NCBI RefSeq assembly: GCF_022045235.1
Contig: NW_027266308.1
Span: forward strand, 53,382,001 to 53,446,000
Reading direction: 5' to 3'
Source of the DNA: Haliotis cracherodii
Taxonomy: Eukaryota
Length of the DNA stretch: 64,000 nucleotides
How positions within the stretch are numbered: the stretch's first letter is position 1; each line of letters begins with the position of its first letter. The notes below the pieces were generated by a model that made no database searches, was not told the DNA's origin, and saw nothing but the letters and a program-made list of their open reading frames with translations. The position numbers and the translations under genes are program-made. Of the stretch, positions 18,064 to 64,000 are shown piece after piece.

Positions 18064-18382
18064 TTATGTTTCTGAAACAATCAAATGGGCAAATGATTAA
18101 AAACAGTGTCGCCAGGAGCTTCGTTAAATTTTCACTGCTAAGGCATATTCACTACTAAGGGCGTCTGTTTATTTATCTATGTACAGTTTCATGTTTTCTG
18201 TAGAACCTGCGCGAAGAAATCGATAGTAACCTTAATGCAAGATGAATGTCAGCTTACGTAGCCAATCTTAACTCGGTCTCGGTTACCTTATAAATATCAT
18301 TTCAACTTATCTCCTTAATTTATATTTTCGACATTCATAATAATTATTTTCGTTATATATGGGACCTATCACAGACATCAGT

Positions 18383-30394: not shown

Positions 30395-32152
30395 TAATGT
30401 GTTTCCGAGAGGGGCGAAGGTGGTCTGTGCAACCTAAGAGGGGGGTTTTAGGGGTTGCTTATATAGAATTTGGGAATTTTGAGATTTGGAATAGATGCCG
30501 ATGGGATTGGGGAGGAGAACTAAGGGAGCTGGGTATGGTGGATGTTTGTTTGTTTATGTGATTTTGATTTGGTAGGTTATTGTGTTTTTAGATGCGTTTT
30601 ATTAGTTCCGTTTTTATTAAGAATACGCCTAAGGCCTTGAAGTTTTCTAGTTTATTTTGTGGGTTTAGTATTTCTTCTAGAGTTAGAGCCTTGTTTAGAT
30701 TGAGGGTGGTTTGTAATGCGGTTCGATGTGTTAGGTAGTGTGTGCAGTGGATGAGTGCGTGTTCTGGGGTTTCTGGTTGTTTGCAGTGTGGGCAGTTACC
30801 TGTAGTGTGTTTTTTAATTTTTTTTAGGTGGTTATTTAGGTTGGTGTGTCCTGTTTGGAGTTTAGTGATTACTCTGTCGATTTTTTTGGATGGATGGAGA
30901 ATTTTTGGTTTGGTTAGTGGTTTGCTGAGCACTTTTTTGATTTGGCTATTTGAGTTTAGATATAGGTTGTGCCATTTTTGTGTGATTTTTTGTTTGTTTA
31001 CACTTTTAATTTCTGATTTTGAGATGGGTAAGTTTAAGCTTATTTCTGGGATTTTGAGGGATAGTTTAGCTGCTTTATCGGCGTTTTCATTACCGTATAT
31101 TCCTACGTGGGCGGGTATCCACAAGAAGGTTATTTGTTTGCCTGCCTTAGTTAGGTCGTTGGAGCTTTTAAGTATTTGATTTATTAATTTAGGTCGGTTT
31201 TTGGTATTTTTGTTTTGGAGGGCTTGCAGTCCACTTAGGGAGTCGGTAAGTATTAGGATTTTTTGTGTTTTTTGGATTCTTGATTATGGAGGGCTGAGGC
31301 CATGCCCATTAGTTCTGCCGTGAATATTGATTGGTTATTTGGGAGTCGGAAGGATTGTGTGGTTTTAGTTGGTTGTGTGGTATGGACTCCGAAACCTGTG
31401 TGTTTGGAGGTCGGATTTGAGGATCCGTCCGTGTAAATGTGACACCAACTTGGCCAATGTTCGTGTATGTATGCTAGTGTGGTAGTTTTAGCTATTTTTG
31501 GGTCGGTTTGTTTATTTATTTGGCTAGCTAGTGTTGTGTCTATTTTGGGTATTTTAAGTTTAGGGGTGAAGATATTTGTGTTAATGCCTGGCCCTTCCAC
31601 ACACTATAAGGATTCCTCGCTAGGATTTGTAAATGTTTTGTCCCTGTTTGTTAATGAAATTGTCCCACAAAACAAGATGGACATTTAAACGTAGTGTCCA
31701 CACAGATGTGCTACGTAGGGCGGCCTCTTTGATGTAGGTGTAAAGTTTTGACAGGTAAGTGAGTACACGCTCACCTGGCGGAGGCTACTTTAATGTACCG
31801 CTACCTCGTCGACGACTGCTACCGTTTTAATTAGGTAAACAAAGATATGGTTCTTATTGCTGTGAAAACAATCAAGATGTTTCAACTTAAACAGCATGGC
31901 GGCTATACATGAAGAAAGAATTCCTGATTATTAACAACACAGACGTAGGGAGTAATGAGTGGGTGGTGTATGGTGGTTGACTTAAAAGAAGCCCGATGGT
32001 CATGGTACGGGTATAAAGTCGAAAACTTCCATCCTTGAGTCATCAGTCAAAGAGCTGCCCTAATCGAAACCAGCAAGACTTGTCACCGAGACCATCTTCA
32101 CATTTCGAGCATTTTCTCTTTTAAAAGTATTCTATACAATTACCACATTAAA

Positions 32153-32989
32153 ATGAAAGTGAAGAGCCCCGAAACCAAGCCAAGCAAGTGCACCGCCAAC
32201 AAGACAATCGTTCCGGCAAGGAACAGGATCAAGTACTCTGCTAGTCAGGTAAACATTTAATTGCTCGAAACGTCAATAGGAAGAAAACATAAACTTTTGT
32301 TATTTCAAAAGTAAATCGCAATACAAATTTAACACGTTTTCATCTCCACTATCCATATCCACAGTTGAGGGAACTGGAGAAGGTATTCGTGTCCTCTCAG
32401 TATCCTGACAGCTCCATCTTGGAGGATCTCTCCAACACCATCAACATCGACGTAGAGAGACTATCGGTAGGTAAATCCTCTTTATTAAACTTAACAGAAG
32501 TTCTCGAAAGAGATAATTGATCGCACAATACACAATATCATAGTGATATAAAAATCAAAGTAAGTACACACCAAGTTAGTTTCACAGGCGTGTAGTGGGC
32601 TCTTATTAGCTTCAACACAATAGCATGTCTCGGACTAACAACAATCTCTTCTCTTCTTCAGCCTCCACTACCTACCCAGCACTGGACCCGGCTGCTCCTC
32701 AGTGACGGACTACGACCACGTCTACAACCCCCTGATGTATCCATCATCACACAACGTCTACAGCGCACTCACTGACGCAGTATCCTGTACACGGCCTACC
32801 CAGAATACTCTCCACTACCCACATCTGATGACGGAAACATCCTTCCAAGTCACACCATGCCAGCAACAGTGGACAGAGTATTCCAACCAGTCCAACTTCA
32901 GCTCTCCCGGAACTCCATACTACCAGAATTATATACCCCACTTCAACTTCCTAAGTGATCAGATGACATTTCCCCAGATGGGCGTCTAG
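32153..32989 (+). pseudogene. Homeobox copy 1: exon 3 (recognition helix WFQNRR) removed by a ~385-bp deletion
   Basis: Exon 1 (32153-32248) and exon 2 (32365-32466) are intact; junction gatataaaaatcaaagtaag at ~32550 skips the end of intron 2 and nearly all of exon 3; splicing exon 2 to exon 4 would frameshift. Confidence 0.88.
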
Positions 32990-34167
32990 AACCTTCGGGG
33001 ATGTATTCGTGGCCAGACGAAGCACGAGGGCGTAATTTGTGCAATATGCACTGCAGTCCAATGTTCAACTCATCTTGGGCCTGCTTTGTTACTATTAATG
33101 TATATATTGTTGTGTTTACGTTATGGATTGCAACTGTCATTTGAAGAGGACTGTGTAAATGTTTCTGAGATAATAAACATTATCTGAAAACTATCATTTC
33201 CTGTTCTTATGAAACACGCATTTTCCCACTTTCATGTAAACCACGATTACAAATATCTTACTGATAAACAAAGGATCCTAAACAGGCGAATCTTGGATTC
33301 GAACACATGATTGGTGGATGTTGGTTGGACTAAGAGACAAACCTCTGCACCGTTCAAATGAATCTGCTTGAAGGAAACTTTTATTGTGAAATTTAACCGT
33401 TCTTTAGGTTGTGTGATATGAAATATAAAGCATTGTATAAATCATTTTTAGCAAAGCTACCCTCACAGGTATAGATCCTCACCTCCTTGGAAACATGTGT
33501 GTTGCAACTGCGACAGATATCCTGCTTTGCTCAGGTCACATTTAAGAGTGTTGTGGTTACATATGTTCCATCGTATATAGGTAATAACTAAAACATTAAA
33601 TGAAGCTATGTTTTCACACACTATAAGGATTCCTCGCTAGGGTTGTAAATGTTTTGTCCCTGTTTGTTTATGAAATTGTCCCACAAAACAAGATGGACAT
33701 TTAAACGTAGTGTCCACACAGGTGTGCTACGTAGGGCGGCCTCTTTGATGTAGGTGTAAAGTTTTGACAGGTAAGTGAGTACACGCTCACCTGGCGGAGG
33801 CTACTTTAATGTACCGCTACCTCGTCGACGACTGCTACCGTTTTAATTAGGTAAACAAAGATATAGTTCTTATTGCTGTGAAAACAATCAAGATGTTTCA
33901 ACTTAAACAGCATGGCGGCTATACATGAAGAAAGAATTCCTGATTATTAACAACACAGACGTGGGAGTAATGAGTGGGTGGTGTATGGTGGTTGACTTAA
34001 AAGAAGCCCGATGGTCATGGTACGGGTATAAAGTCGAAAACTTCCATCCTTGAGTCATCAGTCATAGAGCTGCCCTAATCGAAACCAGCAAGACTTGTCA
34101 CCGAGACCATCTTCACATTTCGAGCATTTTCTCTTTTAAAAGTATTCTATACAATTACCACACTATA

Positions 34168-34905
34168 ATGAAAGTGAAGAGCCCCGAAACCAAGCCAAGC
34201 AAGTGCACCGTCAACAAGACAATCGTTTCGGCAAGGAACAGAATCAAGTACTCTGCTAGTCAGGTAAACATTTAATTGCTCGAAACGTCAATAGGAAGAA
34301 AACATAAACTATTGTTATTTCAAAAGTAAATCGCAATACAAATCTCTCCAACACCATCAACATCGACGTAGAGAGACTATCGGTAGGTAAATCCTCTTTA
34401 TTAAACTTAACAGAAGTTCTCGAAAGAGATAATTGATCGCACAATACACAATATCATAGTGATATAAAAATCAAAGTAAGTACACACCAAGTTAGTTTCA
34501 CAGGCGTGTAGTGGGCTCTTATTAGCTTCAACACAATAGCATGTCTCGGACTAACAACAATCTCTTCTCTTCTTCAGCCTCCACTACCTACCCAGCACTG
34601 GACCCGGCTGCTCCTCAGTGACGGACTACGACCACGTCTACAACCCCCTGATGTATCCATCATCACACAACGTCTACAGCGCACTCACTGACGCAGTATC
34701 CTGTACACGGCCTACCCAGAATACTCTCCACTACCCACATCTGATGACGGAAACATCCTTCCAAGTCACACCATGCCAGCAACAGTGGACAGAGTATTCC
34801 AACCAGTCCAACTTCAGCTCTCCCGGAACTCCATACTACCAGAATTATATACCCCACTTCAACTTCCTAAGTGATCAGATGACATTTCCCCAGATGGGCG
34901 TCTAG
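34168..34905 (+). pseudogene. Homeobox copy 2: same exon-3 deletion plus a 99-bp deletion removing the exon-2 acceptor and most of exon 2
   Basis: Junction caatacaaat|ctctccaac at ~34343; distance from ATG to the exon-4 GTG is 450 versus 549 in copy 1 and 938 in intact copy 3. Confidence 0.88.
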
Positions 34906-36654
34906 AACCTTCGGGGATGTATTCGTGGCCAGACGAAGCACGAGGGCGTAATTTGTGCAATATGCACTGCAGTCCAATGTTCAACTCATCTTGGGCCTGC
35001 TTTGTTACTATTAATGTATATATTGTTGTGTTTACGTTATGGATTGCAACTGTCATTTGAAGAGGACTGTGTAAATGTTTCTGAGATAATAAACATTATC
35101 TGAAAACTATCATTTCCTGTTCTTATGAAACACGCATTTTCCCACTTTCATGTAAACCACGATTACAAATATCTTACTGATAAACAAAGGATCCTAAACA
35201 GGCGAATCTTGGATTCGAACACATGATTGGTGGATGTTGGTTGGACTAAGAGACAAACCTCTGCACCGTTCAAATGAATCTGCTTGAAGGAAACTTTTAT
35301 TGTGAAATTTAACCGTTCTTTAGGTTGTGTGATATGAAATATAAAGCATTGTATAAATCATTTTTAGCAAAGCTACCCTCACAGGTATAGATCCTCACCT
35401 CCTTGGAAACATGTGTGTTGCAACTGCGACAGATATCCTGCTTTGCTCAGGTCACATTTAAGAGTGTTGTGGTTACATATGTTCCATCGTATATAGGTAA
35501 TAACTAAAACATTAAATGAAGCTATGTTTTCAAGGCTTGAATGATACATTTGGCATCAAATAACACTCATGTTAAACTTTGAAGCTGCTCAGTTACGGTC
35601 AATGTGATATCCCGATCTATGCCTGTAAGGTATTATCAACAACTTTCGTATGCACTTGTAATCGCCATGTTGCGTATAGGAGCCAAACCTTCATGCTGAC
35701 GTTATCGGATTATCGGGCGCTTCCTTTGGATACCATTGTCTTAAGCAGATGTCGACACAATTTACCGTCTGGGAGCGTAAAACATATATACATGCATAAG
35801 GCGTGTCGGACAAACCAATTACGTCAATCAGTACTGTACATACATTATATACCACTAGTTCAAACCATTCATTATTTCATATGGCGAGAGATACAGACTG
35901 GTAAACGGGAAATTTACCCATAGGGTGACCCTTGTATTGCAGAAAAGCCAAGCAAGTAATGGTACAGCAATCACAGTTTAAGGTGTCATTTACAGGTATT
36001 TGGATTATTACCACGAAAAAGTACATGGCAATAGTTTCAACAGTTTTAAAAATAGTTTGCCAAATCAATACTGACATTAATTTCTTCATAACCATCATTT
36101 AGGATCCGATTTTCTATCATAATACCATATGGATCTTCCAAATGTTATATATCAATTTATTTATGTGTCAGTTTAGGTATGTAATGTGTATTTTATTATC
36201 ATATTGTGAGGCGCTAAATATACAGGTGAGGAACATCAAACGTCCCATGAACTACTTGAACCTTACCCCTCTATAAATTGTAAATATAGTTGCTGAGTTT
36301 TCAGCTTCATGTTGGTTGTGAGACTTCATTAAATATTAAGTACCAAAAACGTCTCTACACTATGGTGGCAGCCAACTTCTACTAATATTTCGATCAAATG
36401 ATAATATACCTTACGTCGGAATATATGCATCGGAATATATAGAATCTGAGCGTGATCTTGAAATAGCTTGGCACATCCGTTCAGTTAGCATAGAGTAAAA
36501 TATTTTGAAGTTAATAAAGTGAAATATAAATAGCTACAAAGAGAAAAGTAATTTTTACGTGTTATCGGTGGTTATGATGAACATGTAACTTGAAAATTGC
36601 AAGGTTTTTACCAAACCTAAAATTCTTAAGAGAGGCGGGTAAAGACAATAAAAT

Positions 36655-37110
36655 AAACTTTCCATATTCATATTAAGAATTTGTGTCAAACACACACTCG
36701 ATTGTATAATTCCGACCATATCATGAGTATGTTTCCATTAGTCGCCATCAAATAGTGATGATACCAGATGTTGGCGAAAAGGCGAGCGTATCCGGCTCCG
36801 CTATTTCCCCAGTTGCACCCCGTCACAAACACATGCAAAACCAAGGCAATTGTTCACCCGAAAAAAAACAACGGAACAAGTTAAAAAGGGAACTGTATCA
36901 AGCATCATTTGGTCACTGGTGCGTCAAATTTGGAAATGTCATCCACATGTCTACCACAAAAGCTTTAAAAGCTTTATGTTGTAACTAAGAACACTCTTTG
37001 AAATCATCGTGGAAAGAGCTTGCTCGAGTGAACCTCAAAAGTTGTGAAATGTAGACAACTGGGAACCATTTTTCTTGGCTCACGACATATATACGCCTTA
37101 TTTCTTTTGA
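36655..37110 (-). mobile_element. Penelope-like 3' remnant carried in the spacer of every full array unit
   Basis: Homologous to 8100-8560 (atcaaatagt.atgatacca..tgtt.gcgaaaa...ccccgtcacaaacac...cacatgtcta); repeats at each unit period. Confidence 0.65.
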
Positions 37111-37755
37111 ACAAATACATGATCATCGAGATTTTTCTGTATCCTCTTATTCCAAAGATGTTCAATTATATAATGGATATGCGTTTCAAGCTTATTACGA
37201 GCATAACTGTTTCACACAATAACAAATAAGTCATCCTTGTGAAGACTACGGTACTGTTAATGTTTGTTTGTTTGTTGTTTAACGCCGCACTCGGCAATAT
37301 TCCAGCTATATGACGACGGTTATTGTTAATGCCTGGCCCTTCCACACACTATAAGGATTCCTCGCTAGGATTTGTAAATGTTTTGTCCCTGTTTGTTTAT
37401 GAAATTGTCCCACAAAACAAGATGGACATTTAAACGTAGTGTCCACACAGGTGTGCTACGTAGGGCGGCCTCTTTGATGTAGGTGTAAAGTTTTGACAGG
37501 TAAGTGAGTACACGCTCACCTGGCGGAGGCTACTTTAATGTACCGCTACCTCGTCGACGACTGCTACCGTTTTAATTAGGTAAACAAAGATATAGTTCTT
37601 ATTGCTGTGAAAACAATCAAGATGTTTCAACTTAAACAGCATGGCGGCTATACATGAAGAAAGAATTCCTGATTATTAACAACACAGACGTGGGAGTAAT
37701 GAGTGGGTGGTGTATGGTGGTTGACTTAAAAGAAGCCCGATGGTCATGGTACGGG

Positions 37756-37792
37756 TATAAAGTCGAAAACTTCCATCCTTGAGTCATCAGTC
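37756..37792 (+). promoter_or_regulatory. Core promoter of the homeobox gene (TATA box plus initiator), present in each unit
   Basis: TATAAAG at 37756-37762 and an Inr-like TCATCAGTC with A at 37786/37789 (30-33 bp downstream); the ATG follows ~110 bp later with no intervening ATG seen. Confidence 0.65.
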
Positions 37793-37896
37793 ATAGAGCT
37801 GCCCTAATCGAAACCAGCAAGACTTGTCACCGAGACCATCTTCACATTTCGAGCATTTTCTCTTTTAAAAGTATTCTATACAATTACCACACTATA

Positions 37897-39122
37897 ATGA
37901 AAGTGAAGAGCCCCGAAACCAAGCCAAGCAAGTGCACCGTCAACAAGACAATCGTTTCGGCAAGGAACAGAATCAAGTACTCTGCTAGTCAGGTAAACAT
38001 TTAATTGCTCGAAACGTCAATAGGAAGAAAACATAAACTATTGTTATTTCAAAAGTAAATCGCAATACAAATTTAACACGTTTTCATCTCCACTATCCAT
38101 ATCCACAGTTGAGGCAACTGGAGAAGGTATTCGTGTCCTCTCAGTATCCTGACAGCTCCATCTTGGAGGATCTCTCCAACACCATCAACATCGACGTAGA
38201 GAGACTATCGGTAGGTAAATCCTCTTTATTAAACTTAACAGAAGTTCTCGAAAGAGATAATTGATCGCACAATACACAATATCATAGTGATATAAAACTC
38301 TCTTTCTTGTCCCCTTAAATGTACATAGGACCCATGAAATGTACTGAAGTGAAATTCTCATTTTTACTGCTTTATTCAGTTTATATGGTAGACTTAAAGA
38401 ATTGTTGGATATTTCATTTCATAATCTTTTCAACCCATATAATAGACCCTGATTTCATTAAATGTCTCGATAATAATGACCTCTCTCTGCCATACAGATC
38501 TGGTTCCAGAACCGCCGTTCCAAGTTCAAGCGTCAGTCTAAAGGTGCTCACGTGAACTGGATGAGACAGCAACTGTATCAACAAGGAACATCACGGTCAC
38601 GTGACATAACGGCTACGGACAAGTGTCACGTGCTCACACCACCAACGACTTCCAAGAAAGATGACGTGAAAGACAAACCCAAATCAAAGTAAGTACACAC
38701 CAAGTTAGTTTCACAGGCGTGTAGTGGGCTCTTATTAGCTTCAACACAATGGCATGTCTGTCTCGGACTAACAACAATCTCTTCTCTTCTTCAGCCTCCA
38801 CTACCTACCCAGCACTGGACCCGGCTGCTCTTCAGTGACGGACTACGACCACGTCTACAACCCCCTGATGTACCCATCATCACACAACGTCTACAGCGCA
38901 CTCAGTGACGCAGTATCCTGTACACGGCCTACCCAGAATACTCTCCACTACCCACATCTGATGACGGAAACATCCTTCCAAGTCACACCATGCCAGCAAC
39001 AGTGGACAGAGTATTCCAACCAGTCCAACTTCAGCTCTCCCGGAACTCCATACTACCAGAATTATATACCCCACTTCAACTTCCTAAGTGATCAGATGAC
39101 ATTTCCCCAGATGGGCGTCTAG
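37897..39122 (+). CDS. PRD-class-like Q50 homeobox protein, copy 3 (intact, 238 aa); exons 37897-37992, 38109-38210, 38498-38688, 38795-39122
   Basis: GT-AG introns (phases 0, 0, 2) give an open frame. Homeodomain SARNRIKYSASQ|LRQLEKVFVSSQYPDSSILEDLSNTINIDVERLS|IWFQNRRSKFKRQS with R5, L16, F20, Y25-P26, W48-F49-Q50-N51, R53; intron between codons 46/47 is typical of PRD class. Confidence 0.92.
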
Positions 39123-39304
39123 AACCTTCGGGGATGTATTCGTGGCCAGACGAAGCACGAGGGCGTAATTTGTGCAATATGCACTGCAGTCCAATGTTGA
39201 ACTCATCTTGGGCCTGCTTTGTTACTATTAATGTATATATTGTTGTGTTTACGTTATGGATTGCAACTGTCATTTGAAAAGGACTGTGTAAATGTTTCTG
39301 AGAT

Positions 39305-39310
39305 AATAAA
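39305..39310 (+). terminator. Probable polyadenylation signal AATAAA of the homeobox gene (present in every unit)
   Basis: AATAAA ~180 bp after the TAG, followed by a T-rich element. Confidence 0.55.
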
Positions 39311-42113
39311 CATTATCTGAAAACTATCATTTCCTGTTCTTATGAAACACGCATTTTCCCACTTTCATGTAAACCACGATTACAAATATCTTACTGATAA
39401 ACAAAGGATCCTAAACAGGCGAATCTTGGATTCGAACACATGATTGGTGGATGTTGGTTGGACTAAGAGACAAACCTCTGCACCGTTCAAATGAATCTGC
39501 TTGAAGGAAACTTTTATTGTGAAATTTAACCGTTCTTTAGGTTGTGTGATATGAAATATAAAGCATTGTATAAATCATTTTTAGCAAAGCTACCCTCACA
39601 GGTATAGATCCTCACCTCCTTGGAAACATGTGTGTTGCAACTGCGACAGATATCCTGCTTTGCTCAGGTCACATTTAAGAGTGTTGTGGTTACATATGTT
39701 CCATCGTATATAGGTAATAACTAAAACATTAAATGAAGCTATGTTTTCAAGGCTTGAATGATACATTTGGCATCAAATAACACTCATGTTAAACTTTGAA
39801 GCTGCTCAGTTACGGTCAATGTGATATCCCGATCTATGCCTGTAAGGTATTATCAACAACTTTCGTATGCACTTGTAATCGCCATGTTGCGTATAGGAGC
39901 CAAACCTTCATGCTGACGTTATCGGATTATCGGGCGCTTCCTTTGGATACCATTGTCTTAAGCAGATGTCGACACAATTTACCGTCTGGGAGCGTAAAAC
40001 ATATATACATGCATAAGGCGTGTCGGACAAACCAATTACGTCAATCAGTACTGTACATACATTATATACCACTAGTTCAAACCATTCATTATTTCATATG
40101 GCGAGAGATACAGACTGGTAAACGGGAAATTTACCCATAGGGTGACCCTTGTATTGCAGAAAAGCCAAGCAAGTAATGGTACAGCAATCACAGTTTAAGG
40201 TGTCATTTACAGGTATTTGGATTATTACCACGAAAAAGTACATGGCAATAGTTTCAACAGTTTTAAAAATAGTTTGCCAAATCAATACTGACATTAATTT
40301 CTTCATAACCATCATTTAGGATCCGATTTTCTATCATAATACCATATGGATCTTCCAAATGTTATATATCAATTTATTTATGTGTCAGTTTAGGTATGTA
40401 ATGTGTATTTTATTATCATATTGTGAGGCGCTAAATATACAGGTGAGGAACATCAAACGTCCCATGAACTACTTGAACCTTACCCCTCTATAAATTGTAA
40501 ATATAGTTGCTGAGTTTTCAGCTTCATGTTGGTTGTGAGACTTCATTAAATATTAAGTACCAAAAACGTCTCTACACTATGGTGGCAGCCAACTTCTACT
40601 AATATTTCGATCAAATGATAATATACCTTACGTCGGAATATATGCATCGGAATATATAGAATCTGAGCGTGATCTTGAAATAGCTTGGCACATCCGTTCA
40701 GTTAGCATAGAGTAAAATATTTTGAAGTTAATAAAGTGAAATATAAATAGCTACAAAGAGAAAAGTAATTTTTACGTGTTATCGGTGGTTATGATGAACA
40801 TGTAACTTGAAAATTGCAAGGTTTTTACCAAACCTAAAATTCTTAAGAGAGGCGGGTAAAGACAATAAAATAAACTTTCCATATTCATATTAAGAATTTG
40901 TGTCAAACACACACTCGATTGTATAATTCCGACCATATCATGAGTATGTTTCCATTAGTCGCCATCAAATAGTGATGATACCAGATGTTGGCGAAAAGGC
41001 GAGCGTATCCGGCTCCGCTATTTCCCCAGTTGCACCCCGTCACAAACACATGCAAAACCAAGGCAATTGTTCACCCGAAAAAAAACAACGGAACAAGTTA
41101 AAAAGGGAACTGTATCAAGCATCATTTGGTCACTGGTGCGTCAAATTTGGAAATGTCATCCACATGTCTACCACAAAAGCTTTAAAAGCTTTATGTTGTA
41201 ACTAAGAACACTCTTTGAAATCATCGTGGAAAGAGCTTGCTCGAGTGAACCTCAAAAGTTGTGAAATGTAGACAACTGGGAACCATTTTTCTTGGCTCAC
41301 GACATATATACGCCTTATTTCTTTTGAACAAATACATGATCATCGAGATTTTTCTGTATCCTCTTATTCCAAAGATGTTCAATTATATAATGGATATGCG
41401 TTTCAAGCTTATTACGAGCATAACTGTTTCACACAATAACAAATAAGTCATCCTTGTGAAGACTACGGTACTGTTAATGTTTGTTTGTTTGTTGTTTAAC
41501 GCCGCACTCGGCAATATTCCAGCTATATGACGACGGTTATTGTTAATGCCTGGCCCTTCCACACACTATAAGGATTCCTCGCTAGGATTTGTAAATGTTT
41601 TGTCCCTGTTTGTTTATGAAATTGTCCCACAAAACAAGATGGACATTTAAACGTAGTGTCCACACAGGTGTGCTACGTAGGGCGGCCTCTTTGATGTAGG
41701 TGTAAAGTTTTGACAGGTAAGTGAGTACACGCTCACCTGGCGGAGGCTACTTTAATGTACCGCTACCTCGTCGACGACTGCTACCGTTTTAATTAGGTAA
41801 ACAAAGATATAGTTCTTATTGCTGTGAAAACAATCAAGATGTTTCAACTTAAACAGCATGGCGGCTATACATGAAGAAAGAATTCCTGATTATTAACAAC
41901 ACAGACGTGGGAGTAATGAGTGGGTGGTGTATGGTGGTTGACTTAAAAGAAGCCCGATGGTCATGGTACGGGTATAAAGTCGAAAACTTCCATCCTTGAG
42001 TCATCAGTCATAGAGCTGCCCTAATCGAAACCAGCAAGACTTGTCACCGAGACCATCTTCACATTTCGAGCATTTTCTCTTTTAAAAGTATTCTATACAA
42101 TTACCACACTATA

Positions 42114-43339
42114 ATGAAAGTGAAGAGCCCCGAAACCAAGCCAAGCAAGTGCACCGTCAACAAGACAATCGTTTCGGCAAGGAACAGAATCAAGTACTCT
42201 GCTAGTCAGGTAAACATTTAATTGCTCGAAACGTCAATAGGAAGAAAACATAAACTATTGTTATTTCAAAAGTAAATCGCAATACAAATTTAACACGTTT
42301 TCATCTCCACTATCCATATCCACAGTTGAGGCAACTGGAGAAGGTATTCGTGTCCTCTCAGTATCCTGACAGCTCCATCTTGGAGGATCTCTCCAACACC
42401 ATCAACATCGACGTAGAGAGACTATCGGTAGGTAAATCCTCTTTATTAAACTTAACAGAAGTTCTCGAAAGAGATAATTGATCGCACAATACACAATATC
42501 ATAGTGATATAAAACTCTCTTTCTTGTCCCCTTAAATGTACATAGGACCCATGAAATGTACTGAAGTGAAATTCTCATTTTTACTGCTTTATTCAGTTTA
42601 TATGGTAGACTTAAAGAATTGTTGGATATTTCATTTCATAATCTTTTCAACCCATATAATAGACCCTGATTTCATTAAATGTCTCGATAATAATGACCTC
42701 TCTCTGCCATACAGATCTGGTTCCAGAACCGCCGTTCCAAGTTCAAGCGTCAGTCTAAAGGTGCTCACGTGAACTGGATGAGACAGCAACTGTATCAACA
42801 AGGAACATCACGGTCACGTGACATAACGGCTACGGACAAGTGTCACGTGCTCACACCACCAACGACTTCCAAGAAAGATGACGTGAAAGACAAACCCAAA
42901 TCAAAGTAAGTACACACCAAGTTAGTTTCACCTGCGTGTAGTGGGCTCTTATTAGCTTCAACACAATGGCATGTCTGTCTCGGACTAACAACAATCTCTT
43001 CTCTTCTTCAGCCTCCACTACCTACCCAGCACTGGACCCGGCTGCTCTTCAGTGACGGACTACGACCACGTCTACAACCCCCTGATGTACCCATCATCAC
43101 ACAACGTCTACAGCGCACTCAGTGACGCAGTATCCTGTACACGGCCTACCCAGAATACTCTCCACTACCCACATCTGATGACGGAAACATCCTTCCAAGT
43201 CACACCATGCCAGCAACAGTGGACAGAGTATTCCAACCAGTCCAACTTCAGCTCTCCCGGAACTCCATACTACCAGAATTATATACCCCACTTCAACTTC
43301 CTAAGTGATCAGATGACATTTCCCCAGATGGGCGTCTAG
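42114..43339 (+). CDS. PRD-class-like homeobox protein, copy 4 (intact); exons 42114-42209, 42326-42427, 42715-42905, 43012-43339
   Basis: Same splice sites and protein as copy 3. Confidence 0.92.
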
Positions 43340-46089
43340 AACCTTCGGGGATGTATTCGTGGCCAGACGAAGCACGAGGGCGTAATTTGTGCAATATGCA
43401 CTGCAGTCCAATGTTGAACTCATCTTGGGCCTGCTTTGTTGTTACTATTAATGTATATATTGTTGTGTTTACGTTATGGATTGCAACTGTCATTTGAAGA
43501 GGACTGTGTAAATGTTTCTGAGATAATAAACATTATCTGAAAACTATCATTTCCTGTTCTTATGAAACACGCATTTTCCCACTTTCATGTAAACCACGAT
43601 TACAAATATCTTACTGATAAACAAAGGATCCTAAACAGGCGAATCTTGGATTCGAACACATGATTGGTGGATGTTGGTTGGACTAAGAGACAAACCTCTG
43701 CACCGTTCAAATGAATCTGCTTGAAGGAAACTTTTATTGTGAAATTTAACCGTTCTTTAGGTTGTGTGATATGAAATATAAAGCATTGTATAAATCATTT
43801 TTAGCAAAGCTACCCTCACAGGTATAGATCCTCACCTCCTTGGAAACATGTGTGTTGCAACTGCGACAGATATCCTGCTTTGCTCAGGTCACATTTAAGA
43901 GTGTTGTGGTTACATATGTTCCATCGTATATAGGTAATAACTAAAACATTAAATGAAGCTATGTTTTCAAGGCTTGAATGATACATTTGGCATCAAATAA
44001 CACTCATGTTAAACTTTGAAGCTGCTCAGTTACGGTCAATGTGATATCCCGATCTATGCCTGTAAGGTATTATCAACAACTTTCGTATGCACTTGTAATC
44101 GCCATGTTGCGTATAGGAGCCAAACCTTCATGCTGACGTTATCGGATTATCGGGCGCTTCCTTTGGATACCATTGTCTTAAGCAGATGTCGACACAATTT
44201 ACCGTCTGGGAGCGTAAAACATATATACATGCATAAGGCGTGTCGGACAAACCAATTACGTCAATCAGTACTGTACATACATTATATACCACTAGTTCAA
44301 ACCATTCATTATTTCATATGGCGAGAGATACAGACTGGTAAACGGGAAATTTACCCATAGGGTGACCCTTGTATTGCAGAAAAGCCAAGCAAGTAATGGT
44401 ACAGCAATCACAGTTTAAGGTGTCATTTACAGGTATTTGGATTATTACCACGAAAAAGTACATGGCAATAGTTTCAACAGTTTTAAAAATAGTTTGCCAA
44501 ATCAATACTGACATTAATTTCTTCATAACCATCATTTAGGATCCGATTTTCTATCATAATACCATATGGATCTTCCAAATGTTATATATCAATTTATTTA
44601 TGTGTCAGTTTAGGTATGTAATGTGTATTTTATTATCATATTGTGAGGCGCTAAATATACAGGTGAGGAACATCAAACGTCCCATGAACTACTTGAACCT
44701 TACCCCTCTATAAATTGTAAATATAGTTGCTGAGTTTTCAGCTTCATGTTGGTTGTGAGACTTCATTAAATATTAAGTACCAAAAACGTCTCTACACTAT
44801 GGTGGCAGCCAACTTCTACTAATATTTCGATCAAATGATAATATACCTTACGTCGGAATATATGCATCGGAATATATAGAATCTGAGCGTGACCTTGAAA
44901 TAGCTTGGCACATCCGTTCAGTTAGCATAGAGTAAAATATTTTGAAGTTAATAAAGTGAAATATAAATAGCTACAAAGAGAAAAGTAATTTTTACGTGTT
45001 ATCGGTGGTTATGATGAACATGTAACTTGAAAATTGCAAGGTTTTTACCAAACCTAAAATTCTTAAGAGAGGCGGGTAAAGACAATAAAATAAACTTTCC
45101 ATATTCATATTAAGAATTTGTGTCAAACACACACTCGATTGTATAATTCCGACCATATCATGAGTATGTTTCCATTAGTCGCCATCAAATAGTGATGATA
45201 CCAGATGTTGGCGAAAAGGCGAGCGTATCCGGCCCCGCTATTTCCCCGGTTACACCCCGTCACAAACACATGCAAAACCAAGGCAATTGTTCACCCGGAA
45301 AAAAAAGGGAACAAGTTAAAAAGGGAACTGTATCAAGCATCATTTGGTCACTGATGCGTCAAATTTGGAAATGTCATCCACATGTCTACCACAAAACGTT
45401 TTAAAAGCTTTATGTTGTAACTAAGAACACTCTTTGAAATCATCGTGGAAAGAGCTTGCTCGAGTGTACCTCAGAAGTTGTGAAATGTAGACAACTGGGA
45501 ACCATTTTTCTTGGCTCACGACATATATACGCCTTATTTCTTTTGAACAAATACATGATCATCGAGATTTTTCTGTATCCTCTTATTCCAAAGATGTTCA
45601 ATTATATAATGGATATGCGTTTCAAGCTTATTACGAGCATAACTGTTTCACACAATAACAAATAAGTTATCCTTGTGAAGACTACGGTGTTGTTAATGTT
45701 TGTTTGTTTGTTGTTTAACGCCGCACTCGGCAATATTCCAGCTATATGACGACGGTTATTGTTAATGCCTGGCCCTTCCACACACTATAAGGATTCCTCG
45801 CTAGGATTTGTAAATGTTTTGTCCCTGTTTGTTAATGAAATTGTCCCACAAAACAAGATGGACATTTAAACGTAGTGTCCACACATATGTGCTACGTAGG
45901 GCGGCCTCTTTGATGTAGGTGTAAAGTTTTGACAGGTAAGTGAGTACACGCTCACCTGGCGGAGGCTACTTTAATGTACCGCTACCTCGTCGACGACTGC
46001 TACCGTTTTAATTAGGTAAACAAAGATATAGTTCTTATTGCTGTGAAAACAATCAAGATGTTTCAACTTAAACAGCATGGCGGCTATAC

Positions 46090-49000
46090 ATGAAGAAAGA
46101 ATTCCTGATTATTAACAACACAGACGTGGGAGTAATGAGTGGGTGGTGTATGGTGGTTGACTTAAAAGAAGCCCGATGGTCATGGTACGGGTATAAAGTC
46201 GAAAACTTCCATCCTTTGGACGTACCAATCCAAACAGAAAACCAAGAACCAAAATTCCATTACAACAAAGCTAACTGGGACCAATTCCAAGATATCTGCA
46301 ACGAAGCTAACTTAAACGAAATAGAAAATAATGATCCAGAAACCTATTGTAACAACCTAACAGACTATATAATAAACGCAGCCAAAACCTCCATCCCCTT
46401 CAAAGTATCTAAGACAGGCAAACCGACGGTACCATGGTGGAATGAGGAAATAGAACAGACTAGACGAAAACGTAAATCAGCCTTCAATAAAGCAAAACGC
46501 GACTACAAATATTTAAACATAGCCCACGAACTAAACCACCAGGTTCAAAAACTAGTCCAAATAGCCAAAAGTAGAGACTGGAAAAAATTCTGCGAAGGTA
46601 TAAATAACCGTACAGATGCCAGAACGGTCTGGCGCAAAATCCACGCCATTAGAGGCTTAAAACGACATAAAAAAAACCCTAACATTAACAACTCAACCAA
46701 CCCCGCCCAAAAAGCAAATAATCTCGCCAACCACTTTTCGGCCGTTAGCAGTAACAGCAACTTCAGCCAAAAATTCCAAGATAAACTTAAAACAGAAAAC
46801 AAACCCACAAAAGAACCAAACAATAACAATCTAGAAATAAATCAACCCTACACAATGGAGGAGCTCCTCTACGTAATCCAAAACAGGAAAAAGGGCACAG
46901 CCCCAGGATTAGACCTAACCTCTTACCAAATAATTAACAAACTCCCCCTAAAACTGCTCCAGGCACTACTCAAACTATACAATCTCATCTACCTAAACGG
47001 ACAGGTTCCTACACCCTGGAAACAGGCCCTAGTCATACCAATCCCTAAACCTAATAAACCAGCTAATCAAGCTAACTCATATAGACCAATATCCCTAACT
47101 TCAAACTTATGTAAAGTAATGGAATCAATGGCTAAAAATAGATTACAACATTACTTAAACCAAAATAACACCATAAACCCAGATCAAAGCGGTTTCACTC
47201 CTGGCCGCTCAACCCTAGATAACCTCGCCCGACTAGAACAAGATATTAAGACAGGACAACTAAATAAACAATATACCACAGGCATCTTCTTAGACTTCTC
47301 TAAAGCTTTCGACATGGTATGGCACGATGGGCTAATACAAAAACTTAAAAAAATAGGACTCAAAGGTCAGATAATAAACTACATCCAGGACTTCCTAAAC
47401 AATCGTAAAATAACCGTGTGTATAGACCAAACTCTATCGGACCAATGTCCCCTAGAAAATGGCACTCCACAGGGCAGTATCCTCAGCCCCACCCTCTTCA
47501 ATATAATGATAAACGATCTATTCGAGGGTCTATCCCCTAAAGTAAACACATCAAAATTCGCGGATGATGGAGCCATCTGGATCCGCACTAAAAGCATGAA
47601 AATGGCCACAAATCTACTCCAAAAATCTCTTAATAAAATACAACAATGGGCTGACAAATGGGGCTTCTCCCTTAACTCAGAAAAAACAACAGGAATAGTA
47701 TTCAAACATAAAAACATGAAACCCGCCTCCCCAATCCTCCAGCTAAACAACCAAACAATCAAATTTCAAAAACAAACCAAATTCTTAGGACTTATTTTCG
47801 ATGAACATCTCACCTGGGATGCTCACATCCAAAACCTAACAACTAAATGCAGTAAAGACCTAAACACCCTAAGATGCCTAACTGGCTCTAACTGGGGAGC
47901 CTCCAAAGATACTCTCCTCTCTCTCTACATATCCCTAATTAGATCAAAACTAGACTACGGCTGCGCCATATACAACACCCTAAACAACTCTCTATCCAAA
48001 AAACTTGACTCAATACAATATCAGGCTCTCAAACTCATTACACGCACCCAACATGGCACCTCCTACACCTCACTTCAGGCCTTAACAGGAGAAATGCCAC
48101 TAAGTCTACGCAGGGAACAGCTAAGCTTAAATTTCTGGGCCGCGTCCCAATCAAACCCTCTCATCCAAAACTTAATAAACCAAAACATCAGCCCTAAAAA
48201 CCAAGCTCTAGCTCGTAAACACCCCTTACTTACCCCAATATCCCAAAGAATAACAAACTACCTAAATGAACACCAAATTAAAAATCTTAAACAAAACTGC
48301 AAACAATCAAATATCTTCACCCCTAAACTTAAAATACCCAAAATAGACACAACACTAGCTAGCCAAATAAATAAACAAACCGACCCAAACATAGCTAAAA
48401 CTACCACACTAGCATACATACACAAAAATTGGCCAAATTGGTGTCACATTTACACGGACGGATCCTCAGATCCGACCTCCAAACACACGGGTTTCGGAGT
48501 CCATACCACACAACCAACTAAAACCACACAATCCTTCCGACTCCCAAATAACCAATCAATATTCACGGCCGAACTAATGGGCATGGCCTCAGCCCTCCAC
48601 AATCAAGAATCCAAAAACAACCAAAAAATCCTAATACTTACTGACTCCCTAAGTGGACTACAAGCCCTCCAAAACAAAAATACCAAAAACCGACCTAAAT
48701 TAATAAATCAAATACTTAAAAGCTCCAACGACCTAACAAAAGCAGGCAAACAAATAACCTTCTTGTGGATACCCGCCCACGTAGGAATATACGGTAATGA
48801 AAACGCCGATAAAGCAGCTAAACTATCCCTTAAAATCCCAGAAATAAGCTTAAACTTACCCATCTCAAAATCAGAAATTAAAAGTGTAAACAAACAAAAA
48901 ATCACAAAAAAATGGCATAACCTATATCTAAACTCAAATAGCAAAATCAAAAGAGTGCTCAGCAAACCACTAACCAAACCAAAAATTCTCCATCCATCAA

Positions 49001-49299
49001 AAAAAATCGACAGAGTAATCACTAAACTCCAAACAGGACACACCAACCTAAATAACCACCTAAAAAAAATTAAAAAACACACTACAGGTAACTGCCCACA
49101 CTGCAAACAACCAGAAACCCCAGAACACGCACTCATCCACTGCACACACTACCTAACACATCGAACCGCATTACAAACCACCCTCAATCTAAACAAGGCT
49201 CTCACTCTAGAAGCAATACTAAACCCACAAAATAAACTAGAAAACTTCAAGGCCTTAGGCGTATTCTTAATAAAAACGGAACTAATAAAACGCATCTAA
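46090..49299 (+). CDS. LINE ORF2 remnant (RT + RNase H + C-terminal CCHC), uninterrupted; the first 42 codons come from the array unit, not the LINE
   Basis: APGLD, YRPISLTS, QSGF, LDFSKAFD, GTPQGSILSP, FADD, IYTDGS, TAEL, TDS, WIPAHVGIYGNE.AD, CPHC..ETPEH...HC. Confidence 0.9.
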   Translation: MKKEFLIINNTDVGVMSGWCMVVDLKEARWSWYGYKVENFHPLDVPIQTENQEPKFHYNKANWDQFQDICNEANLNEIENNDPETYCNNLTDYIINAAKTSIPFKVSKTGKPTVPWWNEEIEQTRRKRKSAFNKAKRDYKYLNIAHELNHQVQKLVQIAKSRDWKKFCEGINNRTDARTVWRKIHAIRGLKRHKKNPNINNSTNPAQKANNLANHFSAVSSNSNFSQKFQDKLKTENKPTKEPNNNNLEINQPYTMEELLYVIQNRKKGTAPGLDLTSYQIINKLPLKLLQALLKLYNLIYLNGQVPTPWKQALVIPIPKPNKPANQANSYRPISLTSNLCKVMESMAKNRLQHYLNQNNTINPDQSGFTPGRSTLDNLARLEQDIKTGQLNKQYTTGIFLDFSKAFDMVWHDGLIQKLKKIGLKGQIINYIQDFLNNRKITVCIDQTLSDQCPLENGTPQGSILSPTLFNIMINDLFEGLSPKVNTSKFADDGAIWIRTKSMKMATNLLQKSLNKIQQWADKWGFSLNSEKTTGIVFKHKNMKPASPILQLNNQTIKFQKQTKFLGLIFDEHLTWDAHIQNLTTKCSKDLNTLRCLTGSNWGASKDTLLSLYISLIRSKLDYGCAIYNTLNNSLSKKLDSIQYQALKLITRTQHGTSYTSLQALTGEMPLSLRREQLSLNFWAASQSNPLIQNLINQNISPKNQALARKHPLLTPISQRITNYLNEHQIKNLKQNCKQSNIFTPKLKIPKIDTTLASQINKQTDPNIAKTTTLAYIHKNWPNWCHIYTDGSSDPTSKHTGFGVHTTQPTKTTQSFRLPNNQSIFTAELMGMASALHNQESKNNQKILILTDSLSGLQALQNKNTKNRPKLINQILKSSNDLTKAGKQITFLWIPAHVGIYGNENADKAAKLSLKIPEISLNLPISKSEIKSVNKQKITKKWHNLYLNSNSKIKRVLSKPLTKPKILHPSKKIDRVITKLQTGHTNLNNHLKKIKKHTTGNCPHCKQPETPEHALIHCTHYLTHRTALQTTLNLNKALTLEAILNPQNKLENFKALGVFLIKTELIKRI

Positions 49300-49573
49300 A
49301 ACCATAATAACCTACCAAATCAAAATCACATAAACAAACAATCATCCACCATACCCAGCTCCCTTAGTTCTCCTCCCCAACCCCATCAGCATCTATTCCA
49401 AATCTCAAAATTCCCAAATTCTATATAAGCAACCCCTAAAGCCCCCTCTTGGGTTGCACAGACCACCCTCGCCCCTTTCGGAAACACATTAAATGGCCGG
49501 GCCGGGCCCGTGTGCGAAATACGCATCAGTCGGAAAGCGCACGTTAAATCTCCAAAGTAAGTAAGTAAGTAAG
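46217..49573 (+). mobile_element. 5'-truncated RNase H-containing LINE (I-group: I/Nimb/Ingi-like), 3357 bp
   Basis: TSD tcctt at 46212-46216 and 49574-49578; (TAAG)n tail; absent from the other units; lacks ORF1 and the APE endonuclease. Confidence 0.95.
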
Positions 49574-49694
49574 TCCTTGAGTCATCAGTCATAGAGCTGC
49601 CCTAATCGAAACCAGCAAGACTTGTCACCGAGACCATCTTCACATTTCGAGCATTTTCTCTTTTAAAAGTATTCTATACAATTACCACACTATA

Positions 49695-50911
49695 ATGAAA
49701 GTGAAGAGCCCCGAAACCAAGCCAAGCAAGTGCACCGTCAACAAGACAATCGTTCCGGCAAGGAACAGAATCAAGTACTCTGCTAGTCAGGTAAACATTT
49801 AATTGCTCGAAACGTCAATAGGAAGAAAACATAAACTATTGTTATTTCAAAAGTAAATCGCAATACAAATTTAACACGTTTTCATCTCCACTATCCATAT
49901 CCACAGTTGAGGGAACTGGAGAAGGTATTCGTGTCCTCTCAGTATCCTGACAGCTCCATCTTGGAGGATCTCTCCAACACCATCAACATCGACGTAGAGA
50001 GACTATCGGTAGGTAAATTACACTTAACAGAAGTTCTCGAAAGAGATAATTGATCGCACAATACACAATATCATAGTGATATAAAACTCTCTTTCTTGTC
50101 CCCTTAAATGTACATAGGACCCATGAAATGTACTGAAGTGAAATTCTCATTTTTACTGCTTTATTCAGTTTATATGGTAGACTTAAAGAATTGTTGTATA
50201 TTTCCTTTCATAATCTTTTCAACCCATATAATAGACCCTGATTTCATTAAATGTCTCGATAATAATGACCTCTTTCTGCCATACAGATCTGGTTCCAGAA
50301 CCGCCGTTCCAAGTTCAAGCGTCAGTCTAAAGGTGCTCACGTGAACTGGATGAGACAGCAACTGTTTCAACAAGGAACATCACGGTCACGTGACGTAACG
50401 GCTACGGAGGAATGTCACGTGCTCACACCACCAACGACTTCCAAGAAAGATGACGTGAAAGACAAACCCAAATCAAAGTAAGTACACACCAAGTTAGTTT
50501 CACCTGCGTGTAGTGGGCTCTTATTAGCTTCAACACAATGGCATGTCTGTCTCGGACTAACAACAATCTCTTCTCTTCTTCAGCCTCCACTACCTACCCA
50601 GCACTGGACCCGGCTGCTCTTCAGTGACGGACTACGACCCCGTCTACAACCCCCTGATGTATCCATCATCACACAACGTCTACAGCGCACTCACTGACGC
50701 AGTATCCTGTACACGGCCTACCCAGAATACTCTCCACTACCCACATCTGATGACGGAAACATCCTTCCAAGTCACACCATGCCAGCAACAGTGGACAGAG
50801 TATTCCAACCAGTCCAACTTCAGCTCTCCCGGAACTCCATACTACCAGAATTATATACCCCACTTCAACTTCCTAAGTGATCAGATGACATTTCCCCAAA
50901 TAGGCGTCTAG
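49695..50911 (+). CDS. PRD-class-like homeobox protein, copy 5 (coding intact; TATA separated by LINE); exons 49695-49790, 49907-50008, 50287-50477, 50584-50911
   Basis: Same exon structure; variant type B (P at homeodomain position 1, E at 15, DVTATEEC, DYDP, QIGV). Confidence 0.88.
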
Positions 50912-53904
50912 AACCTTCGGGGATGTATTCGTGGCCAGACGAAGCACGAGGGCGTAATTTGTGCAATATGCACTGCAGTCCAATGTTGAACTCATCTTGG
51001 GCCTGCTTTGTTGTTACTATTAATGTATATATTGTTGTGTTTACGTTATGGATTGCAACTGTCATTTGAAGAGGACTGTGTAAATGTTTCTGAGATAATA
51101 AACATTATCTGAAAACTATCATTTCCTGTTCTTATGAAACACGCATTTTCCCACTTTCATGTAAACCACGATTACAAATATCTTACTGATAAACAAAGGA
51201 TCCTAAACAGGCGAATCTTGGATTCGAACACATGATTGGTGGATGTTGGTTGGACTAAGAGACAAACCTCTGCACCGTTCAAATGAATCTGCTTGAAGGA
51301 AACTTTTATTGTGAAATTTAACCGTTCTTTAGGTTGTGTGATATGAAATATAAAGCATTGTATAAATCATTTTTAGCAAAGCTACCCTCACAGGTATAGA
51401 TCCTCACCTCCTTGGAAACATGTGTGTTGCAACTGCGACAGATATCCTGCTTTGCTCAGGTCACATTTAAGAGTGTTGTGGTTACATATGTTCCATCGTA
51501 TATAGGTAATAACTAAAACATTAAATGAAGCTATGTTTTCAAGGCTTGAATGATACATTTGGCATCAAATAACACTCATGGTAAACTTTGAAGCTGCTCA
51601 GTTACGGTCAATGTGATATCCCGATCTATGCCTGTAAGGTATTATCAACAACTTTCGTATGCACTTGTAATCGCCATGTTGCGTATAGGAGCCAAACCTT
51701 CATGCTGACGTTATCGGATTATCGGGCGCTTCCTTTGGATACCATTGTCTTAAGCAGATGTCGACACAAGTTACCGTCTGGGAGCGTAAAACATATATAC
51801 ATGCATAAGGCGTGTCGGACAAACCAATTACGTCAATCAGTACTGTACATACATTATATACCACTAGTTCAAACCATTCATTATTTCATATGGTGAGAGA
51901 TACAGACTGGTAAACGGGAAATTTACCCATAGGGTGACCCTTGTATTGCAGAAAAGCCAAGCAAGTAATGGTACAGCAATCACAGTTTAAGGTGTCATTT
52001 ACAGGTATTTGGATTATTACCACGAAAAAGTACATGGCAATAGTTTCAACAGTTTTTAAAATAGTTTGCCAAATCAATACTGACATTAATTTCTTCATAA
52101 CCATCATTTAGGATCCGATTTTCTATCATAATACCATATGGATCTTCCAAATGTTATATATCAATTTATTTATGTGTCAGTTTAGGTATGTAATGTGTAT
52201 TTTATTATCATATTGTGAGGCGCTAAATATACAGGTGAGGAACATCAAACGTCCCATGAACTACTTGAACCTTACCCCTCTATAAATTGTAAATATAGTT
52301 GCTGACTTTTCAGTTTCATGTTGGTTGTGAGTCTTCATTAAATATTAAGTCCAAAAACGTCTCTACACTATGGTGGCAGCCAACTTCTACTAATATTTCG
52401 ATCAAATGATAAAATGCCTTACGTCGGAATATATGCATCAGAATATATAGAATCTGAGCGTGATCTTGAAATAGCTTGGTACATCCGTTCAGTTAGCATA
52501 GAGTAAAATATTTAGAAGTTAATAAAGTGAAATATAAATAGCTACAAAAAGAAAAGTAATTTTTACGTGTTATTGGTGGTTATGATGAACACGTAACTTG
52601 AAAATTGCAAGGTTTTTACCAAACCTAAAATTCTTAAGAGAGGCGGGTAAAGACAATAAAATAAACTTTCCATATTCATATTAAGAATTTGTGTCAAACA
52701 CACACTCGATTGTATAATTCCGACCATATCATGAGTATGTTTCCATTAGTCGCCATCAAATAGTGATGATACCAGATGTTGGCGAAAAGGCGAGCGTATC
52801 CGGCCCCGCTATTTCCCCGGTTACACCCCGTCACAAACACATGCAAAACCAAGGCAATTGTTCACCCGGGAAAAAAAAGGGAACAAGTTAAAAAGGGAAC
52901 TGTATCAAGCGTCATTTGGTCACTGATGCGTCAAATTTGGAAATGTCATCCACATGTCTACCACAAAACGTTTTAAAAGCTTTATGTTGTAACTAAGAAC
53001 ACTCTTTGAAATCATCGTGGAAAGAGCTTGCTCGAGTGTACCTCAGAAGTTGTGAAATGTAGACAACTGGGAACCATTTTTCTTGGCTCACGACATATAT
53101 ACGCCTTATTTCTTTTGAACAAATACATGATCATCGAGATTTTTCTGTATCCTCTTATTCCAAAGATGTTCAATTATATAATGGATATGCGTTTCAAGCT
53201 TATTACGAGCATAACTGTTTCACACAATAACAAATAAGTTATCCTTGTGAAGACTACGGTGTTGTTAATGTTTGTTTGTTTGTTGTTTAACGCCGCACTC
53301 GGCAATATTCCAGCTATATGACGACGGTTATTGTTAATGCCTGGCCCTTCCACACACTATAAGGATTCCTCGCTAGGATTTGTAAATGTTTTGTCCCTGT
53401 TTGTTAATGAAATTGTCCCACAAAACAAGATGGACATTTAAACGTAGTGTCCACACATATGTGCTACGTAGGGCGGCCTCTTTGATGTAGGTGTAAAGTT
53501 TTGACAGGTAAGTGAGTACACGCTCACCTGGCGGAGGCTACTTTAATGTACCGCTACCTCGTCGACGACTGCTACCGTTTTAATTAGGTAAACAAAGATA
53601 TAGTTCTTATTGCTGTGAAAACAATCAAGATGTTTCAACTTAAACAGCATGGCGGCTATACATGAAGAAAGAATTCCTGATTATTAACAACACAGACGTG
53701 GGAGTAATGAGTGGGTGGTGTATGGTGGTTGACTTAAAAGAAGCCCGATGGTCATGGTACGGGTATAAAGTCGAAAACTTCCATCCTTGAGTCATCAGTC
53801 ATAGAGCTGCCCTAATCGAAACCAGCAAGACTTGTCACCGAGACCATCTTCACATTTCGAGCATTTTCTCTTTTAAAAGTATTCTATACAATTACCACAC
53901 TATA

Positions 53905-63541: not shown

Positions 63542-64000
63542 AACCTTCGGGGATGTATTCGTGGCCAGACGAAGCACGAGGGCGTAATTTGTGCAATATG
63601 CACTGCAGTCCAATGTTGAACTCATCTTGGGCCTGCTTTGTTGTTACTATTAATGTATATATTGTTGTGTTTACGTTATGGATTGCAACTGTCATTTGAA
63701 GAGGACTGTGTAAATGTTTCTGAGATAATAAACATTATCTGAAAACTATCATTTCCTGTTCTTATGAAACACGCATTTTCCCACTTTCATGTAAACCACG
63801 ATTACAAATATCTTACTGATAAACAAAGGATCCTAAACAGGCGAATCTTGGATTCGAACACATGATTGGTGGATGTTGGTTGGACTAAGAGACAAACCTC
63901 TGCACCGTTCAAATGAATCTGCTTAAAGGAAACTTTTATTGTGAAATTTAACCGTTCTTTAGGTTGTGTGATATGAAATATAAAGCATTGTATAAATCAT

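Follow-up and report, generated by a model that had tools for sequence, protein, structure and literature searches.

A nine-copy tandem array of a PRD Clade V homeobox gene, with an apparently undescribed motif beside its homeodomain, in the abalone Haliotis cracherodii

A divergent PRD-like homeobox lies in a 64,000-nucleotide stretch of the Haliotis cracherodii genome (the window), and the locus raises the question of whether this homeobox belongs to an intact gene, which family the gene comes from, and what its surroundings imply. The four exons of the focal gene (37897-39122) were joined into a 717-nt frame with a single stop, encoding 238 amino acids, and all three introns were bounded by GT-AG; read unspliced, the frame met a stop three codons inside intron 1. 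The two introns that a first-pass annotation had placed inside the homeobox, at 12/13 and 46/47, were recovered by exon joining, both in phase 0, and a third intron in phase 2 (38689-38794), absent from that annotation, was added. An intron at 46/47 is a hallmark of the PRD class, and it was present in the focal gene and in both of its diverged paralogues. The splicing was based on splice signals, on RefSeq models that agree across three species of Haliotis, and on conservation among further molluscs. Moreover, the H. cracherodii RefSeq proteins XP_071080775.1/776.1 (record P0023), labelled 'OTX1 B-like', were identical to the focal protein. In the exon 1-2 region, no spliced joint was found in four runs guessed to be RNA, which gave unspliced contigs only. 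One contig from a single run (X2) began 30 nt before the first donor and ended at the second donor; since such ends are expected of graph branching at both donors, it is a weak hint of splicing. The focal gene is real and intact, and the clade it belongs to is known, though poorly defined (Table 1).

Table 1. Positions of the features at and around the locus, in window coordinates unless marked C45 (the window's contig)
Feature	Position	Strand	Details
Exon 1, focal copy	37897..37992	+	ATG, 20-aa leader, homeodomain 1-12; GT donor
Exon 2, focal copy	38109..38210	+	Homeodomain 13-46; Pfam Homeodomain E 1.6e-4 alone
Exon 3, focal copy	38498..38688	+	Homeodomain 47-60, predicted WMRxQ helix extension, HVL motif
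Exon 4, focal copy	38795..39122	+	NLHY motif, S/T/P/Y/Q-rich tail, stop
Complete repeat unit with focal gene	37340..41556	+	4217 bp; from self-comparison
Tandem array in window	31579..64000	+	Runs on to ~C45:53,458,600, with three more intact copies
Diverged paralogue closing array	~C45:53,462,900-53,464,200		Beyond the window
Intact copy 2	42114..43339	+	Protein same as focal copy (P0023)
Intact copy 3	49695..50911	+	9 aa differences; matches P0020
Intact copy 4	53905..55121	+	Matches P0022
Intact copy 5	58115..59331	+	Matches P0025
Intact copy 6	62325..63541	+	Matches P0022
Broken edge copy	32153..32989	+	Nearly all of exon 3 missing
Broken edge copy	34168..34905	+	First 61 nt of exon 2 and nearly all of exon 3 missing
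Degraded exon 3 relic, same family	9606..9818	-	Contains a stop
Two further relics of exon 3	~11913-12026, ~12753-12875	-	
Young 5'-truncated LINE	46217..49573	+	RT and RNase H, (TAAG)n tail, 4-5 bp target duplication
Inverted fragment, same LINE family	30395..31578	-	Left array edge; 97% to 48308-49491

The homeodomain (aa 21-80) was recognised by Pfam with an E value of 2e-16, as a single homeodomain stretch, and no paired domain was found by Pfam in the focal protein. Its 60 residues carried W48-F49-N51-R53, as in the PRD class, and Y25-P26-D27, L31 and Q50 all stood as previously quoted; the (S/P) and (Q/E) alternatives in that quotation were traced to different array copies. Homeodomains usually possess a salt bridge between R31 and E42. 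In place of the R31 expected of the class, the focal protein had L31 paired with V42, and V19 was paired with I30. R31 was found in none of the 30 tabulated protostome rows and in both hemichordates, and RE or RQ was counted in 130 non-family homeodomains. The aliphatic pair L31/V42 may substitute for the salt bridge, leaving helix 2 compensated rather than decayed; the Hesx1 homeodomain is reportedly stabilised by such aliphatic pairs, and the title of a Hesx1 mutant occurred among the PDB matches. The divergence noted earlier in the N-terminal arm and at L31 was indeed seen, but the comparison of rows presented it as a set of family traits and not as decay.

AlphaFold2 placed helices at residues 30-42, 48-58, and 62-93 of the focal protein, with pLDDT of 92-98 for residues 31-80 and 82 for 81-90, the remainder being of low confidence. 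The predicted fold agreed with Prrx at an rmsd of 0.5 A, Prrx being the best PDB match; the other top matches were DUX4, Hesx1, Phox2b, and Paired. A normal three-helix homeodomain is predicted, the recognition helix of which continues through WMRxQ (62-93). Under established homeodomain rules, R5, Q50, and N51 lead to TAAT-core sites, and the focal protein would be expected to read such sites. The tail (aa 130-238) consisted of 50% S/T/P/Y/Q and 15% aromatic residues, in agreement with its first description, and 6% acidic residues. It may act as a weak, non-acidic activation region, a role that is plausible but weakly supported.

The first-pass annotation had also proposed a homeodomain outside the canonical families, forming an unassigned, lineage-specific family. 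The former part stood, as a clade with Prrx homeodomains was rejected (p-AU 0.008) despite Prrx being the best PDB match. The latter had to be revised; the gene falls in the published PRD Clade V, with relatives in gastropods, bivalves, and annelids. A protein search with exon 3 returned 18 proteins, all molluscan, including Lottia XP_009053595.1 (P0008) and XP_009053594.1 (P0009). Supplement sheet 4 of PMC6118893 names these two PRD-V A1 and A2 and places them next to oyster PRD4 and PRD5, and the same homeodomains are placed under PRD Clade V in supplement figure 7 of PMC5322547. A tree built on the homeodomain alone, with 44 chosen rows, united the proteins of abalone, limpet, scallop, mussel, and oyster in one clade (98/89), which also took in one motif-less rotifer protein, and in which the abalone protein grouped with Lottia A1 and the Ostrea PRD4-like and PRD5-like proteins, labels assigned by eye against the printed oyster homeodomains. 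When the motif was added, oyster PRD4-like and PRD5-like joined (88/96), and both are therefore co-orthologues. A separate tree of 100 rows was a quick tree only. The published clade comprises oyster Cgi_PRD4/PRD5, Lottia PRD-V A1/A2, and Capitella PRD-V A/B (PMC5322547, PMC6118893), and the abalone homeodomain was identical to that of Lottia A1 at 37 of 60 positions. On these sequence comparisons, the focal gene is best regarded as the abalone member of spiralian PRD Clade V, with oyster PRD4/PRD5.

This placement would correct the RefSeq labels OTX1, Pax-6, Prop, and Rx on these genes. Otx was ruled out because Q50 was found where K50 is expected, and no TF_Otx domain was detected by Pfam. 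Lopx (PMC6118893) was also rejected. It resembles the focal gene as a lophotrochozoan Q50 homeobox often automatically annotated as Otx or ceh-37, but a comparison by eye and by accession showed that it differs from the present family in its homeodomain and in its Lottia and Mizuhopecten accessions. In one cluster, a DnaJ fusion from Mytilus looked like a fused gene model, none of the four DnaJ matches lying on C45 or on C5, the contig of a second paralogue. The leads from the protein atlas were all under 0.9. Two weak exon-2 matches, at C2:37686953 and 37729594 (47%, E 0.01-0.03), lay 43 kb apart and are possibly other novel PRD genes. Separately, ENA records P0080, P0191, and P0193-P0200 came from an annelid-like genome with many PRD-V proteins on contigs of two lengths, 665,649 and 246,715, which suggests a separate tandem expansion.

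Next to the homeodomain, the first-pass annotation had pointed to a WM motif and had proposed a test of whether NWMR is conserved. WM forms the core of a stretch of 13 residues predicted to prolong helix 3, and its spacing did not vary among molluscs, annelids, one nemertean, one priapulid, and two hemichordates. Among 30 chosen motif-bearing proteins, M68 was present in all, R69 in 29, Q71 in 26, and W67 in 24; downstream, 23 of them carried HVL[ST] and 17 a word resembling NLHY. Conservation of WM was thereby upheld, whereas N occurred in only 3 of the 30, and the actual core reads W-M-R-x-Q. The conserved residues occupy two faces of the helix extension, a pattern that a binding surface would be expected to show; partners may bind to this additional helix and to the HVL and NLHY motifs. 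The UbdA parapeptide extends helix 3 and contacts Exd. The abalone motif is similar to the Hox parapeptides (UbdA, Lox5) and the hexapeptide in being a short conserved peptide beside the homeodomain, but the hexapeptide lies upstream of it, while the abalone WM is C-terminal, on a predicted helix.

To score the motif, a matrix trained on the 18 molluscan proteins was applied to 258 distinct post-homeodomain segments, 41 of which reached at least 15 bits, 212 fell below 0, and five lay between; the scored proteins had been drawn by a motif-containing profile, and the set is therefore biased toward the motif. Over 85,282 other sequence windows, only nine exceeded 10 bits, all of them family members without the anchor, the highest score among the rest being 4.6. 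The scores were 27.6 bits for Lineus, 26.9 for Saccoglossus, 25.6 for Ptychodera, 21.0 for Priapulus, and 13.3 for Capitella PRD-V A. The hemichordate and priapulid proteins carried an N-terminal eh1-like word, and the hemichordates retained R31-E42. Such a word was seen in none of the 29 other rows, and neither the focal leader nor the 3 kb that precede the next copy contained an eh1-like motif. In the homeodomain-only tree, the hemichordates fell outside the clade, but the AU test did not reject a single clade (p-AU 0.29). Hesx1 was not supported as the orthologue of the hemichordate gene, scoring below ceh-37, Paired, and Prrx, and the echinoderm and amphioxus matches returned by non-exhaustive searches were Prrx-like proteins without the motif. 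The reach of the motif suggests a family older than Spiralia, and an urbilaterian origin is a reasonable inference. In the sections concerned, PMC5322547 gives PRD Clade V as confined to Lophotrochozoa, and PMC6118893 raises an older origin through the amphioxus Aprd genes and warns of long-branch attraction; the same sections of both offer no monophyletic support and give no motif. The family here is, unlike the published clade, tied by WMRxQ, HVL, and NLHY motifs that reach beyond Spiralia. The motif, which is apparently undescribed and possibly ancient, thus supplies a character outside the homeodomain for a clade published without tree support, and it suggests an older age for a gene that has been regarded as new in Lophotrochozoa.

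The most unusual feature of the locus, missed by the first-pass annotation, is the tandem array. Self-comparison revealed a 4.2-kb unit repeated from about 31.6 kb to the end of the window, and a genome search gave 14 matches, 13 on C45 and one on C5. The complete copies numbered nine, arranged head to tail, with six inside the window; all nine had an open 717-nt frame and intact splice sites, and each matched a RefSeq protein. The paralogues at the array end and on C5 had all three intron positions in common with the focal gene. The ATG spacing was 4203-4220 bp when one LINE was removed, and unit identity was 96.9-99.9% among the seven units compared. Across eight units, 540 of 1128 informative site pairs failed the four-gamete test, in blocks, and repeated exchange between units is therefore indicated. 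Since some adjacent units were 99.9% identical and copies 1 and 2 encode the same protein, an assembly artefact was considered, in which haplotypes or reads had been placed end to end. This is highly improbable, as units differed by up to 3% in mosaic blocks, one unit held a private LINE with its target duplication, and the records of other species also showed many copies on one contig. No description of the array or the motif was found in the literature searched, most subscription journals being outside its coverage; the available parts of PMC12550047 and PMC8848322 held nothing on PRD-V, and neither a term search of PMC11393055 nor a search of the PMC4729200 supplement gave matches.

Multiple homogeneous copies were on record in all four Haliotis species found. 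RefSeq accessions, with at most four per protein listed and some of them possibly isoforms, came to at least six in H. rufescens and at least 11 in H. asinina, in both cases on a single contig, and to three in H. rubra, spread over two contigs; the tandem layout was read from DNA in H. cracherodii and inferred from accession runs on one contig elsewhere. Protein identity was 96-99.6% among copies of the same species and fell to 83-87% when H. cracherodii was compared with H. rubra or H. asinina. The copies formed clades by species in H. asinina (100/99) and H. rubra (96/94), 36 fixed columns set H. cracherodii apart from H. asinina, and all three cross-species pairings of single copies were rejected. 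The H. cracherodii and H. rufescens copies did not resolve into species groups (46/57, 2 fixed columns). The grouping by species fits concerted evolution of an old array, and separate expansions in the Haliotis species could also account for it.

The constraint on the copies bears on whether their number matters. Under a neutral birth-and-death process, the array would be a side effect of a locus prone to recombination; one or two of the copies, or the single-copy paralogues, would do the work, and copy number would have no function. Among copies, 13 nonsynonymous and 7 synonymous changes were counted (pN/pS 0.51, p 0.17), which is not significantly below 1 and is indistinguishable from neutral; given this result, the two deleted edge copies, and the three relics, drift may account for the copy number. 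The locus also received two LINE insertions, which fit such a process, and the adjacent limpet duplicates (accession pairs) and the many copies on single contigs elsewhere indicate that the family duplicates readily. However, all nine complete copies are open with intact splice sites, homogeneous multi-copy sets recur across the four abalones, and the array-type homeodomain is constrained between species: relative to H. rubra, changes were found at 3 of 73 positions in the homeodomain and motif and at 24 of 101 in the tail (Fisher p 0.0003), and the greater constraint on the former held between species (p 0.0003 and 0.006). Neutral birth-and-death is considered unlikely. The H. asinina models seen (7 distinct proteins) all lacked four residues at homeodomain 47-50, including W48-F49-Q50; the missing residues match an in-frame acceptor 12 nt downstream, which is present in the H. 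cracherodii window too. The records concerned were P0003 and P0030-P0035 from H. asinina and P0029 from H. rubra. The gap may be an error of the gene models; if real, it would mean that the array is fixed for a homeodomain unable to bind DNA and has been kept in that state.

As for timing, section 12 of PMC5322547 describes expression of oyster PRD4 from egg to blastula and of PRD5 after the trochophore. PRD4, with a short branch (0.09), more likely retains the older role than PRD5, the branch of which is long (0.91). A late or adult role, in larval, gonadal, or regenerating tissue, would instead resemble that of PRD5, a co-orthologue peaking after the trochophore, or of the mammalian Rhox cluster, which serves as an analogy. 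Fifteen runs guessed to be RNA, tissue not given, shared part of the stretch, and none of those listed was on record as RNA. Given the branch lengths, this later timing is possible but somewhat unlikely. The reading that we consider probable is a PRD Clade V gene in nine intact copies on a 4.2-kb tandem unit, likely homogenised and likely raising dose, possibly in the early embryo. The uniformity of the units is likely due to unequal crossing-over and gene conversion, and the nine copies likely raise the dose of a predicted DNA-binding regulator; the early timing is possible by analogy with oyster PRD4.

Known systems offer parallels for this layout. Oysters have two PRD Clade V genes and Lottia has small sets, unlike the homogenised nine-copy abalone array. 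Near-identical multi-copy homeodomains of Lottia PRD-VI appear in supplement figure 7 of PMC5322547, and they are therefore a precedent for the amplification of novel PRD genes in gastropods. According to the relevant passages of PMC13558733, DUX4/D4Z4 has one gene per macrosatellite unit under concerted evolution, a layout distinctive of DUX among mammalian PRD-like families. The abalone array resembles the DUX4/Dux/DUXC arrays of those passages in that each unit (4.2 kb long here, 3.3 kb in DUX) holds a single PRD-like Q50 homeobox gene, in concerted evolution, and in broken copies nearby, and it resembles hippopotamus DUXC in its intron-containing units. In contrast, DUX has two homeodomains and the abalone gene one, and their ancestry is different. 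The array is DUX4-like in organisation and not a DUX gene, that is, a convergent layout. A further proposal, that abalones independently evolved a DUX4-like system in which a macrosatellite PRD-like gene delivers a high-dose pulse at zygotic genome activation, derived from an unrecognised urbilaterian family (eh1, homeodomain, and WMRxQ helix, an architecture that hemichordates and a priapulid retain) whose repressor motif was lost in spiralians, is doubtful. A second macrosatellite homeobox, found in a mollusc whose embryos develop externally, would demonstrate convergence, and the reason for such arrays could then be tested through copy counts and staged expression.

The young LINE sits about 120 bp upstream of the copy 3 ATG and may change the expression of that copy. 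Its family is very young, with 1103 candidate places, all 40 scored being near-identical at the 3' end. A site-specific LINE was rejected on these matches elsewhere, as the array site was met in only one of the 20 3' flanks read. In a low-depth contig from another organism (X3), at window position 37777, a (TAAG)n tail resembling that of the LINE occupied the corresponding place in the unit. On the left, 0.7 kb from the array, a single open frame of 1847 codons at 24138-29678 (+) matched DUF6589 (E 5e-11). Ordinary minisatellites were located at 2456-3054, with a period of 89 bp, and at 18382-19311, with periods of 40/84/146 bp.
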